The notes beneath the pieces were generated by a model, which was not told the origin of the DNA, ran no database searches, and saw only the letters and a program-made list of their open reading frames with translations. Shown here one piece after another: positions 3,049 through 8,733 of a stretch of DNA of 64,000 nucleotides. The position numbers were made by a program, and so were the translations under genes. The number at the start of each line of letters is the position of its first letter. Position 1 is the stretch's first letter. The stretch comes from Candidatus Doudnabacteria bacterium (lineage in GTDB: Bacteria > Patescibacteriota > Doudnabacteria > UBA920): NCBI GenBank assembly GCA_963837465.1, contig CAWINB010000001.1, positions 220,981 to 284,980 of the forward strand. Direction: 5' to 3'.

Positions 3049-3123
3049 TGGCTGGGGCGCCAGGGATCGAACCTGGGAATGCAGGCTTCAAAGGCCCGTG
3101 CCTTACCGCTTGGCTACGCCCCA
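3049..3123 (-). tRNA. tRNA-Gln (anticodon UUG) with encoded CCA.
   Basis: Reverse complement is UGGGGCGUAGCCAAGCGGUAAGGCACGGGCCUUUGAAGCCUGCAUUCCCAGGUUCGAUCCCUGGCGCCCCAGCCA. It has a 7-bp acceptor stem, U8, anticodon stem CGGGC/GCCUG, loop CUUUGAA giving anticodon UUG, T-arm CCAGG-UUCGAUC-CCUGG, discriminator G and CCA. Confidence 0.85.
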
Positions 3124-3269
3124 ATAATATAGATTACAATTAACAGCTAAAACTATTCGGCAACTAACAGACATTATAAAATAAAACCCCGAAAAAGAAA
3201 AGACAACCAGGAGTTTTGCCGGACGGCGCCTTTAAAAGGTTGAATATTAAGGCAAAAATTGGGGCCAGT

Positions 3270-7539: not shown

Positions 7540-8733
7540 TTACTTCTTTTCCATGGCTCTTAGCTTGGCCGCCTTTGAACGCGGGTTTTGTTTTAATTCT
7601 TCCGGCGAAGCGGTAATTATTTTTTTGGTTAAAATTTTGCCCCGCGGATTTTTGCCGCAAATACACCGCGGGAAATCCGGCGGACAAACACAGCCTTTGG
7701 CCATCCCCGCAAAAAATTGCTTTACCATTCTGTCTTCCAAAGAGTGGAAACTCACCACCACCAGCCGGCCGCCCGGGGCCAACAAATCAAAAGCTTTGGG
7801 TAAAAAACCTGAAAGGTTTTCTAGTTCATGATTTACTTCAATCCTTAACGCCTGGAAGATTCTTCGGGCGGAGTCGTCGGCTTTGTGCTTAACCGGCTTA
7901 GGCAGCGCGTCCTGGATTATCCGGTAAAGATCGTTTGTGTGTTTGATTTCTACCCCCTTACCCCTAGCCCCTATAACCTTGCCAGCTATTTGCCTGCTGA
8001 ATTTTTCTTCCCCATATTCGTAAAAAATTTTCTCCAGCCTTTTTTGGTCGTAATTATTTAAAATAAATTTGGCATCTTCGGGCTGTGACTGGTCAAACCG
8101 CATATCCAGCGGCTGGTTGGTTTGAAAGCTGATTCCCCGGTGCTCCAGCTCGTAAGACGAAAGTCCCAAATCCGCCACAATTCCATCCGGCGCCGGAAAA
8201 TTATGGTTCTTTATAATATGGTCTATTTTGGAAAAATTCCCTTGAACAAGCGAAATATTATAATATAATGATTCAAGGTGGGTTGGGGCTGGTGCCGAGC
8301 GAATCCTTGACAGTTTCGTCTCGCGGGTTCGATCCCCGTCCGGTCCGCCACTTAAAACCCGAAGGTTTGACAAACTCTGAACGTCTGATATACTAGAATT
8401 AACTGTCAAGGTTTCGCTCTGAAGCGCCGGTTTGAGGCCGGAAACCGTCCTTAATTGGGCGGTTTTTTCGTTACTCCAAGAGCTTTTAAAATTCTCAATA
8501 GCATCCTTATCTAAATCTATAGATAGTAATTTCCCTGTCTCCCCAATTTCTTTTAATATCGCCTTGCTGTATCCTCCGCCCCCCAGCGTGGCGTCAACAA
8601 TATTCTTGCCGGGCTTGGGCGCAAGATAAGAAACAACCTCATTAAGTAAAACCGGAGTGTGTTCATAATTATTGACCATGATTGAACAAAATTGACGATG
8701 ATTGACAAGATTGCCACAGCGAATCGTGTTCAA
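7540..8733 (-). CDS. rsmH: 16S rRNA m4C1402 methyltransferase RsmH (MraW) carrying an in-frame insertion of about 65 aa.
   Basis: N-terminus HTPVLLNEVVSYLAPKPGKNIVDATLGGGGYSKAIL and C-terminal ...GGRLVVVSFHSLEDRMVK are canonical RsmH. The protein is 397 aa against about 310 typical. The extra segment (SSWSNEKTAQLRTVSG...GGPDGDRTRETKLSRIRSAPAPTHLESL...) is encoded by about 8245-8440 and is low-complexity. Confidence 0.8.
   Translation of the reverse strand: MNTIRCGNLVNHRQFCSIMVNNYEHTPVLLNEVVSYLAPKPGKNIVDATLGGGGYSKAILKEIGETGKLLSIDLDKDAIENFKSSWSNEKTAQLRTVSGLKPALQSETLTVNSSISDVQSLSNLRVLSGGPDGDRTRETKLSRIRSAPAPTHLESLYYNISLVQGNFSKIDHIIKNHNFPAPDGIVADLGLSSYELEHRGISFQTNQPLDMRFDQSQPEDAKFILNNYDQKRLEKIFYEYGEEKFSRQIAGKVIGARGKGVEIKHTNDLYRIIQDALPKPVKHKADDSARRIFQALRIEVNHELENLSGFLPKAFDLLAPGGRLVVVSFHSLEDRMVKQFFAGMAKGCVCPPDFPRCICGKNPRGKILTKKIITASPEELKQNPRSKAAKLRAMEKK
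8242..8269 (+). promoter_or_regulatory. Near-consensus sigma70-type promoter (TTGAAC-16-TATAAT) antisense to rsmH. It faces the tRNA-like element.
   Basis: ttgaac at 8242-8247 and tataat at 8264-8269 with a 16-nt spacer. Confidence 0.4.
8286..8350 (+). ncRNA. tRNA-like module (acceptor stem + T-arm + CCA; no canonical D or anticodon arms) embedded antisense inside the rsmH insertion.
   Basis: 5' GGGCUGG pairs with CCGGUCC (two G-U pairs). U follows at the U8 position. The T-arm is GCGGG-UUCGAUC-CCCGU. The discriminator is G and the 3' end is CCA at 8348-8350. Only 28 nt separate the acceptor strand and the T-arm. A 19-nt segment at 8297-8315 is complementary to 8401-8419, with one mismatch. 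Confidence 0.4.
8440..8470 (+). terminator. Intrinsic terminator closing the antisense unit inside rsmH.
   Basis: Stem accgucc / gggcggu (7 bp including one G-U) with loop uuaauug, followed by TTTTTT. Confidence 0.4.

Follow-up and report, generated by a model that had tools for sequence, protein, structure and literature searches.

A predicted tRNA-like RNA and antisense RNA pair encoded in a cassette read through in frame by rsmH of a Candidatus Doudnabacteria bacterium

The stretch analysed here, 64,000 nucleotides (nt) of contig CAWINB010000001.1 from a Candidatus Doudnabacteria bacterium (positions 220,981 to 284,980, referred to below as the window), carries on its minus strand an unusually long rsmH. 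Inside this gene, on the opposite strand, lies a segment with two predicted promoters (P1 and P2), a tRNA-like cloverleaf (RNA1), a second putative RNA complementary to the 5' half of RNA1 (RNA2) and an intrinsic terminator (Table 1). An initial annotation, made from the window alone, had proposed a promoter, a CCA-ending tRNA-like module and a terminator on that strand; comparison with related sequences supported all three and added P2, which had been missed.

Table 1. Positions in the window of rsmH and of the predicted parts of the cassette within it
Feature	Position	Strand	Description	Basis
rsmH, host gene	7540..8679	minus	16S rRNA m4C1402 methyltransferase	list of open reading frames; PDB and Pfam matches; alignment with 11 homologues
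Whole cassette	8257..8472	plus	from the P1 -10 region to just past the terminator U run	empty-site homologues; sequence shared across hosts; codon-position test
P1	8242..8269	plus	TTGAAC-16-TATAAT; -10 (8264-8269) in the cassette, -35 overlapping native rsmH V-Q codons (LVQGNF motif)	
RNA1	8280..8350	plus	71-nt tRNA-like cloverleaf	model R1, 85 bits; covariation in 11 sequences; RNAalifold
RNA1 acceptor stem	8280-8286 / 8340-8346	plus	7 bp; 5' strand GGGUUGG; G3:U70 = G8282:U8344	
RNA1 D hairpin	8287-8296	plus	3 bp	
RNA1 long (anticodon-like) arm	8297-8322	plus	9-nt loop CCUUGACAG at 8305-8313	
RNA1 T arm	8323-8339	plus		
RNA1 discriminator	8347	plus	G	
RNA1 CCA	8348-8350	plus		
P2	8367..8394	plus	TTGACA-16-TATACT, preceded by TG	conserved in 12 of 12 copies
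RNA2	8402-8468	plus	antisense segment, then terminator	
RNA2 antisense segment	8402..8440	plus	complementary to RNA1 nt 1-35	RNAduplex and covariation
Intrinsic terminator of RNA2 and of P1 read-through	8440..8468	plus	hairpin, then UUUUUU at 8463-8468	folds

The excess length of RsmH, already noted in the initial annotation, was real: the longest open reading frame (ORF; TTG 8733 to 7540) encodes 397 amino acids (aa), but alignment with homologues pointed to ATG 8679 as the likely start, which leaves 379 aa. Among the best 120 RsmH homologues, nearly all of them belonging to Candidatus Doudnabacteria or to related members of the candidate phyla radiation (CPR), 118 were 242-343 aa long (308-330 aa for the close ones) and about 398 aa was reached only by the window protein (P0001) and by P0002. 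The window protein aligned with solved RsmH structures in two blocks (query residues 6-62 and 137-379, Thermotoga maritima residues 8-63 and 71-295), the break running from 63 to 137 in the query but only from 63 to 71 in T. maritima, and the Pfam Methyltransf_5 match was broken at the same place. Empty-site homologues and a codon comparison assigned the surplus (NEKTAQ...LYYN) to 72 codons at 8257-8472, an in-frame insert as first described, but not of about 65 codons at 8245-8440. DNA identical to the window cassette was found in a second, independent assembly (L002, Logan), so the insert is not an assembly artefact. In the AlphaFold model, residues 93-156 (397-aa numbering) had a predicted local distance difference test score (pLDDT) below 50 and no secondary structure, and were flanked in the Rossmann fold by helix 76-98 and strand 160-164; in this model the insert occupies a permissive surface loop of RsmH and is translated only as a disordered linker.

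The insert and its flanks differed in their divergence from the orthologous rsmH of a second locus (L001). The flanks had 77% protein identity and 73.5% DNA identity, the insert 44% and 66%, and the differences at codon positions 1, 2 and 3 were 57, 35 and 152 in the flanks but 27, 24 and 22 in the insert. By these measures the insert is non-coding DNA translated in frame and not a protein domain, in line with the first description. Orthologues had been named there as the material on which this question could be decided; P0002 carries the insert, but its amino acids are poorly conserved there and the RNA fold strongly covaries. The rsmH frame is free of stops through the whole insert, a condition retained by 2.6% of shuffled sequences and expected by chance with a probability of 0.03, or (61/64)^72, close to the value of approximately 0.04 first calculated.

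Twelve sequences with the same order of parts were assembled: the window, L001, L003, L004, L007, L008, L012-L016 and the divergent L018. The alignments (A7) and duplex counts given below refer to 11 of them, L018 having been assessed separately. An exact pattern spanning the RNA1 long-arm loop through the T loop matched 2 of 185,579 species genomes, L003 (metagenome-assembled genome SKS1.bin76) and L004 (Candidatus Yanofskybacteria), and an exact-pattern scan of metagenomes gave L007 and L008, together with L006, which was rejected as a false positive. An exhaustive hidden Markov model search with two insert peptides yielded six more proteins (P0121-P0126), and the DNA examined for five of them contained the entire cassette in each case; the same peptide thus recurs in unrelated proteins because the same DNA is present there. 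A further protein from the peptide search, P0127, was a eukaryote-like coiled coil and was discarded, and a profile search of a word-indexed protein database with four insert peptides gave no match. The first pattern scan of viral contigs had no matches, a looser pattern found L018 on an IMG/VR contig, and L017, from the second viral-contig scan, proved to be an ordinary phage tRNA-Ala. When the cassette was compared by blastn with plasmids and phages, only 3' halves of ordinary tRNAs were matched.

The sequence common to copies in unrelated hosts extends from the extended -10 of P1 to the terminator T run. The search for other copies suggested in the initial annotation thus yielded none more in the 64-kb window and 11 sequences elsewhere; both our own covariance model of RNA1 (R1) and repeat searches found a single cassette in the window, and there was one per locus elsewhere. 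Only two of the 120 closest RsmH loci carry it, and no terminal inverted repeats or target duplications were found at the cassette ends as defined by host comparison. These comparisons, all at the sequence level and with copies in five different genomic contexts, make it more likely than not that the insert represents an autonomous cassette, about 212 bp long and non-coding, that comprises two RNA genes.

The cloverleaf of RNA1 was predicted independently by RNAalifold from the 11 sequences, as four arms without linker nucleotides. A 7-bp acceptor stem had been recognized from the start, but its 5' strand lies at 8280-8286, 6 nt upstream of the 8286-8292 first assigned; in the window alone, both registers pair. 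D and anticodon arms had been reported as lacking, and both have counterparts: a D hairpin of 3 bp with the loop NGG(U), 3-4 nt, and a long anticodon-like arm of 8 bp (5 bp in addition to GAG, one U being bulged) that ends in the 9-nt loop NNUUGACAN in the alignment. The T arm, discriminator and CCA (8323-8350) were as described; the T arm has a 5-bp stem and the loop UUCGAU(U/C) in all copies, the discriminator is A in 10 copies and G in the window, and CCA is encoded in 8 of the 11. Readings of the UUGACA in the long-arm loop as an anticodon, for Val (GAC) or Ser (UGA), or as the mimic of a -35 element were rejected, the loop having 9 nt and differing in L018.

Conservation of the fold was high. 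Standard pairs made up 98.8% of the 253 alignment cells, changes on both sides occurred in 11 of 23 pairs (35 cells), none of 500 shuffles reached any of these measures, and pairing fell to 53-68% when the partners were slid by one column; in the DNA alignment of the window with L001, paired changes were present in every proposed stem. The G3:U70 pair was found in 11 of 11 copies, acceptor pairs 4-7 varied freely, and L018 retained both the fold and G3:U70 despite its different loop sequence. G3:U70 is the alanine identity pair. Model R1 had a single match in the window, with 85 bits (20 bits for the window tRNA-Gln). The covariance check proposed earlier was thus positive for covariation and for our own model, but no Rfam threshold was reached.

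The promoter first proposed for this strand, TTGAAC-16-TATAAT, was present as P1. Its -10 hexamer ends 10-11 nt before G1 of RNA1 in 12 of 12 copies and is preceded, one base upstream, by TG (TGnTAnnnT) in nine of them (not in the window, L014 or L018), so P1 is mostly of the extended -10 type (TGATATAAT or similar). The window P1 does without the TG; there, a TTGAAC -35 at 16-nt spacing is contributed by rsmH itself, through the native codons for V-Q in its LVQGNF motif. A start from P1 would imply a leader of 3-4 nt, which RNase P would have to remove, and no terminator was found between the RNA1 CCA and RNA2; the ends of RNA1 would therefore have to come from tRNA-processing enzymes. The strand was indicated by the wobble pairs: the cloverleaf cells contained 20 G:U vs. 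one A:C, the 18-bp core of the RNA1-RNA2 duplex contained 5 G:U and no A:C, and both cloverleaf and duplex were less stable if computed on the rsmH strand, which argues that the RNAs are transcribed from the plus strand.

P2 was conserved as TTGAC(A/T/G)-16/17-TA(T/C)A(A/C)T in all 12 copies, often after TG, with a variable spacer sequence. Its distance from the CCA varied (36-81 nt in the 11 aligned copies, 45 nt in L018), and complementarity to RNA1 began 6-7 nt past its -10 in 12 of 12 copies. The initial annotation had described a 19-nt complement with one mismatch (8401-8419 against 8297-8315), which was found again (none of 100 window shuffles gave two matches) but proved to form just the core of a longer complementarity, of about 35 nt. 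Since P2 would start transcription where this complementarity begins, the 19-nt complement is better read as the 5' end of a separate antisense RNA than as an unexplained repeat.

Within RNA1, the RNA2 segment covers the D hairpin and the loop as well as the 5' strands of acceptor stem and long arm. RNAduplex gave 31 pairs and -49.2 kcal/mol for the window, and, for each of the 11 copies, 30-34 pairs with -46 to -56 kcal/mol, a bulge of 3-5 nt in RNA2 facing the RNA1 junction between D hairpin and long arm. Sixteen RNA1 positions changed jointly with their RNA2 partner, including loop positions 26, 27, 34 and 35, which are unpaired within RNA1. All that follows the antisense segment in RNA2 is a short A-rich linker and the intrinsic terminator, already recognized at the end of the cassette in the first description; a simple terminator scan did not list the 8440-8468 hairpin, folding showed hairpin and U run, and a hairpin with a T run was present at the corresponding place in other copies. 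As far as its sequence goes, RNA2 is without visible role besides pairing with and unfolding RNA1. Three other readings were considered and rejected: a tag ORF in RNA2 or the spacer (no frame was conserved and the spacer keeps only the promoter boxes), a T-box-like contact of RNA2 with the NCCA end (no complementarity) and a minus-strand promoter at the complement of the RNA2 5' end (wrong spacing).

Four unrelated hosts carry the cassette in antisense orientation and without stops: rsmH (window and L001), an ORF of L003 whose product exceeds 1200 aa and has an N-terminal membrane anchor (a large surface-protein gene), a DUF4012 ORF of L007, and a family here called X (L012-L016; P0121-P0126), whose members adjoin TrbL_3, PrgI and TraC-like genes. 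The copies of L004, L008 and L018 were intergenic and overlapped no host gene. This spread over DUF4012, surface-protein and type IV secretion-adjoining genes, intergenic sites and the vicinity of a TnpB gene makes regulation of the dcw operon, one of the roles first suggested, unlikely.

The host-embedded copies are read in one common antisense frame (...GGPEGNRTPET.LS...LYH.). Stops were absent from the host frame of every ORF copy whose DNA was examined, 2-10 stops occurred in the other two frames of the window, L001, L003 and L007, and the intergenic L004 and L008 had stops in all three antisense frames, so the open frame has been selected in the ORF copies and is not built into the cassette. 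An antisense orientation is expected because a terminator in sense orientation would cut the host transcript. Inside genes, copies survive only in antisense orientation and only in the single frame from which stops can be kept out.

Several observations concern individual loci. The L014 and L016 copies (P0123 and P0126) lie near the C terminus of hosts of 500-550 aa, directly after a TrbL_3 (VirB6-like) gene, and PrgI, TraC-like and 23S_rRNA_IVP genes in the neighbourhood form a type IV secretion or conjugation-like cluster. In L018 the cassette (440-660) has the loop CUUCCUAU in place of UUGACA, with a complementary RNA2 still present; it lies approximately 30 nt upstream of, and divergent from, a TnpB gene (OrfB_IS605, Cas12f-like; 690-1826), and the remainder of the contig, which encodes a glycosyltransferase and unknown proteins, has no obvious viral character. 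In L015, just past the terminator (approximately 3155-3199, gene-sense strand), a degenerate T arm, acceptor 3' strand and CCA occur in opposite orientation (GTCTCGCGGGTGCGAAACCCCTCACATCCACCA; 12 bits with R1); the peptide that they encode (..GAGGSLAGAKPLTST..) is also present in P0123, and the remnant may, from its sequence, be the relic of a second, inverted copy. Other RsmH proteins (P0010, P0024, P0004, P0007 and P0053) have a different insert of 10-30 aa in exactly the same loop; such inserts, as that of P0010 (approximately 1740-1800 of L010/L011), are G/C-rich palindromes read as ..SPLKGEE..PLPSGEGLGEG, and a match of R1 in the P0010 insert was dismissed as weak (11.9 bits) and on the wrong strand. 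The palindromic inserts show that the site tolerates insertions, and this loop, which lies between helix B and strand 3, is a hot spot of in-frame insertion in Doudnabacteria.

Searches for known RNAs gave only distant resemblances. At gathering thresholds, the Rfam search of the window returned only the tRNA-Gln (3052-3123), and ARAGORN reported no tRNA or transfer-messenger RNA (tmRNA) at the cassette in the window or five other loci. The window RNA1 matched the tRNA model (RF00005) best within its clan, with 17.8 bits (E = 0.47, below the 29-bit gathering threshold) and with D and anticodon arms deleted in the alignment; RNA1 has no 5-bp anticodon stem with 7-nt loop, no standard D arm and no linker nt 8, 9 or 26. 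G3:U70, the 7-bp acceptor stem and the T arm are those of a tmRNA tRNA-like domain (TLD), but the mRNA-like domain is missing, the 328-nt interior of the tmRNA model (RF00023, RF04321) being replaced by 27 nt. For the L004 copy, both ends matched the Rfam tmRNA model (E = 1e-5, 18.2 bits, gathering threshold 47 bits). A permuted, two-piece tmRNA was rejected: both acceptor strands are in RNA1, RNA2 starts at a helix and not after a tag frame, and the permuted model scored 9.8-14 bits (9.8 bits for the window RNA1). From these features, RNA1 most resembles the tRNA-like domain of tmRNA minus its coding part.

The closest known molecules were TLD-only tmRNAs. Model R1 matched an 83-nt RNA of mycobacteriophage DS6A (L019, JN698994, 28478-28560; 32.5 bits, E = 2e-6), which lies between gp33 and gp34 (DNA polymerase III), is unannotated in the GenBank record and has been listed as a "TLD only" tmRNA (PMC4131195). 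A similar TLD-only molecule, chargeable or not, is reported to inhibit tmRNA strongly, perhaps by titrating SmpB (PMC4131195, citing Mao et al. 2009; PMC11915505). tmRNAs without coding sequence, of approximately 65 bp, occur in plastids and mitochondria, and two groups of bacteria may be devoid of tag frames, among them "9FT-COMBO-53-11 sp001772805", for which the 2025 tmRNA database paper states that the tag reading frame may be lacking (PMC11915505); under this name, a representative of the RNA1 family might already be on record as an unusual tmRNA. TLD-only tmRNAs (DS6A, some plastid and mitochondrial ssrA) resemble RNA1 in several respects: the size is about 65-85 nt, the acceptor stem of 7 bp includes G3:U70, the T arm is canonical, the D region contains GG, a helix replaces the anticodon stem and there is no tag frame. 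For RNAs of this kind there is no curated model from which a threshold could be taken. RNA1 differs from them in its closed 3-bp D hairpin, where they have a GG..UUCGAC loop, in often lying inside protein-coding genes, and in always being accompanied by a dedicated antisense RNA gene, whereas no antisense partner was found downstream of the DS6A RNA; partner RNA and residence inside ORFs set the cassette apart from RNAs of the DS6A type.

The best Rfam match of the L004 RNA1 was mascRNA-menRNA (RF01684; 29.6 bits, E = 2.6e-4, gathering threshold 42.5), a family not reported for the window. In these vertebrate RNAs, as in RNA1, a D hairpin of 3 bp (4-nt loop) comes directly after a 7-bp acceptor stem and precedes a short arm in the middle and a T arm, and they are freed by tRNA-processing enzymes; unlike RNA1, they are eukaryotic and nuclear and have neither the alanine identity pair nor an antisense partner, so the likeness is a structural analogy, not homology. 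The pairing of RNA1 and RNA2 is comparable to that of IS10 RNA-IN/RNA-OUT and of plasmid antisense pairs of the CopA/CopT type, in which a free 5' end complements the apical loop of the partner, pairing extends over about 35 bp and the regulator has its own strong promoter. Here, in contrast, the target would be a tRNA-like non-coding RNA instead of an mRNA, and the genes are in tandem on one strand, the complementarity coming from an inverted repeat and not from overlapping transcription.

As a genetic unit, the cassette resembles the Rickettsia palindromic elements in being 100-200 bp of non-coding DNA carried in frame in conserved genes, at surface positions, as an extra loop, but it is single per locus, always antisense to the host gene, and comprises two structured RNAs under purifying selection together with promoters and a terminator. 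With type I and type VIII (RNA toxin) toxin-antitoxin systems it shares a compact two-gene organization with own promoters, an antisense neutralizer that would, as in type I, pair with its target (30-34 bp, 16 covarying positions) and a sporadic, context-independent spread. In contrast to type I systems, RNA1 is a conserved cloverleaf and not an mRNA: no toxin peptide ORF was found, the plus strand having no ATG at 8270-8400, and toxicity is suggested only by the experiments on TLD-only tmRNA. The pair is a conserved set of small RNAs in CPR bacteria with no Rfam family above threshold; in the literature searched, neither it nor anything relevant on a module of a tRNA-like and an antisense RNA in CPR bacteria was found.

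Overall, the best explanation is that P1-RNA1 and P2-RNA2 form a cassette in which RNA2 is the dedicated antagonist of RNA1, and from the conserved sequence features we consider this slightly more probable than not. P1 would drive RNA1 and P2, which is stronger and near-consensus, would drive RNA2. The first nucleotide of RNA2 would be the complement of the RNA1 apical loop and its first 38 nt or so would pair with the whole 5' half of RNA1; by analogy with IS10 RNA-IN on RNA-OUT, the free 5' end of RNA2 may nucleate on the RNA1 loop, after which pairing would proceed like a zipper from the long arm by way of the D hairpin to the acceptor strand. RNA1, presumably charged by alanyl-tRNA synthetase (AlaRS), could when unfolded be neither charged nor bound, and the duplex would probably become the target of a double-strand RNase.

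What RNA1 does is addressed more tentatively. By analogy with the TLD-only tmRNAs, it is possible, though less likely than not, that RNA1 is a message-less tmRNA tRNA-like domain that inhibits trans-translation, probably by titrating SmpB, and that the pair is an RNA-only toxin/antitoxin-like, addiction-type or tightly gated module, which would fit the sporadic, context-independent distribution. On the same analogy, and equally tentatively, RNA1 may act as a poison of ribosome rescue, or redirect it, by way of AlaRS, SmpB and EF-Tu while RNA2 holds it in check, the module spreading among CPR bacteria and persisting in essential genes as a harmless loop.

A number of points weigh against the antagonist cassette. 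Both promoters and both transcripts are deduced from sequence, and promoter-like sites in the region are not more numerous than expected by chance, so the case rests on their conservation. The 11-12 sequences come from few lineages and include close relatives (L004/L008, L014/L016), and part of the covariation in the inverted repeat could come from gene conversion at the DNA level. RNA1 reaches no Rfam family threshold, ARAGORN calls nothing, and its D region is a 3-bp hairpin and not the GG..UUCGAC loop of tmRNA. Transcripts from P1 contain RNA2 in cis, so that the functional form could be one long hairpin, and the minimum-energy fold of the 197-nt whole transcript is such a hairpin (-78.6 kcal/mol, z = -3.65).

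This last point leads to the strongest of the competing explanations, although an unlikely one: a single long plus-strand hairpin, formed by the RNA1 5' half and RNA2 in cis, that regulates the host gene (here rsmH and the dcw operon) as an antisense RNA or in dependence on RNase III, with the tRNA-like part as a processing or stability signal. Besides the fold, the missing terminator between RNA1 and RNA2 and the full complementarity of the cassette to the host mRNA in four host genes agree with it. However, 4 + 4 pairs of acceptor stem and long arm that would form in the cloverleaf alone show covariation, G3:U70 never varies, the conserved P2 would start transcription exactly where the complementarity begins, three copies overlap no host gene at all, and the host genes are unrelated.

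Less probable still is that RNA1 is a real, reduced tmRNA, a tagless ribosome-rescue RNA as in mitochondria and some plastids, whose level is tuned by RNA2. G3:U70, the T arm, GG in the D loop and the long arm in place of the anticodon stem are as expected for such an RNA, but it would be a very sporadic one (two of the 120 closest RsmH loci, and with the strict pattern 2 of 185,579 species genomes), the family thresholds were missed, and an essential rescue RNA should neither have a built-in unfolding antagonist nor sit in varied host genes. A carrier of alanine for non-ribosomal use (cell-wall cross-bridges, lipid aminoacylation), with RNA2 as its regulator and a meaningful dcw position, is improbable: G3:U70 in all copies and the location of the window copy between mraZ and the ftsL/PBP (penicillin-binding protein) genes would suit it, but the other copies lie outside cell-wall contexts, the distribution is sporadic and no aminoacyl-tRNA transferase gene was associated with the cassette at any locus examined.

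There is also little to be said for selfish palindromic DNA of the Rickettsia palindromic element or miniature inverted-repeat transposable element (MITE) type, in which promoters and folds would be incidental and the RNAs without function. The in-frame position in several unrelated ORFs (rsmH, L003, L007, family X), the inverted repeat and the other palindromic inserts in the same rsmH loop of relatives are what such DNA would produce; its copies, however, would not be expected to be single per window or locus and devoid of terminal repeats or target duplications, to favour G:U over A:C by 20 to 1, to conserve both promoters, or to covary in acceptor-stem and T-arm pairs outside the inverted repeat. 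A genuine lineage-specific RsmH domain, to which the open frame and the orthologue with an insert at the same site lent some plausibility, is the least credible explanation of all, since the 44% identity (77% in the flanks) and the predicted disorder tell against it and the intergenic copies with stops in all three antisense frames and the even codon-position changes effectively refute it.

Returning to the cassette with RNA2 as antagonist of RNA1, if RNA1 acts on AlaRS, SmpB or the ribosome, a natural encoded switch for a trans-translation inhibitor, or for an alternative to trans-translation, would be at hand, and this might, if true, be the first RNA-only toxin-antitoxin-like module using tRNA mimicry with no protein component. 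Whatever the function, the cassette is a clear case of dual coding, with approximately 210 bp under constraint to form two structured RNAs, promoters and a terminator on one strand and, on the opposite one, a reading frame kept without stops that yields a disordered loop in at least four unrelated proteins. For the annotation of CPR genomes, unexplained inserts in conserved proteins can hide RNA genes, and such RNA genes can be found by peptide-level searches.

Two further features of the window are not part of the cassette. The tRNA-Gln (UUG) on the minus strand at 3049-3123 was the sole RNA gene of the window above a curated threshold. Between mraZ and the likely rsmH start (8671-8716), four copies of (T)GTCAAT or GTTCAAT are repeated on the gene strand at 10-nt spacing (TTGTCAATCA TCGTCAATTT TGTTCAATCA TGGTCAATAA), the last one overlapping the ATG. 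This repeat could be operator-like, and its location inside the 18-codon N-terminal extension of the 397-aa ORF suggests that the extension is non-coding.

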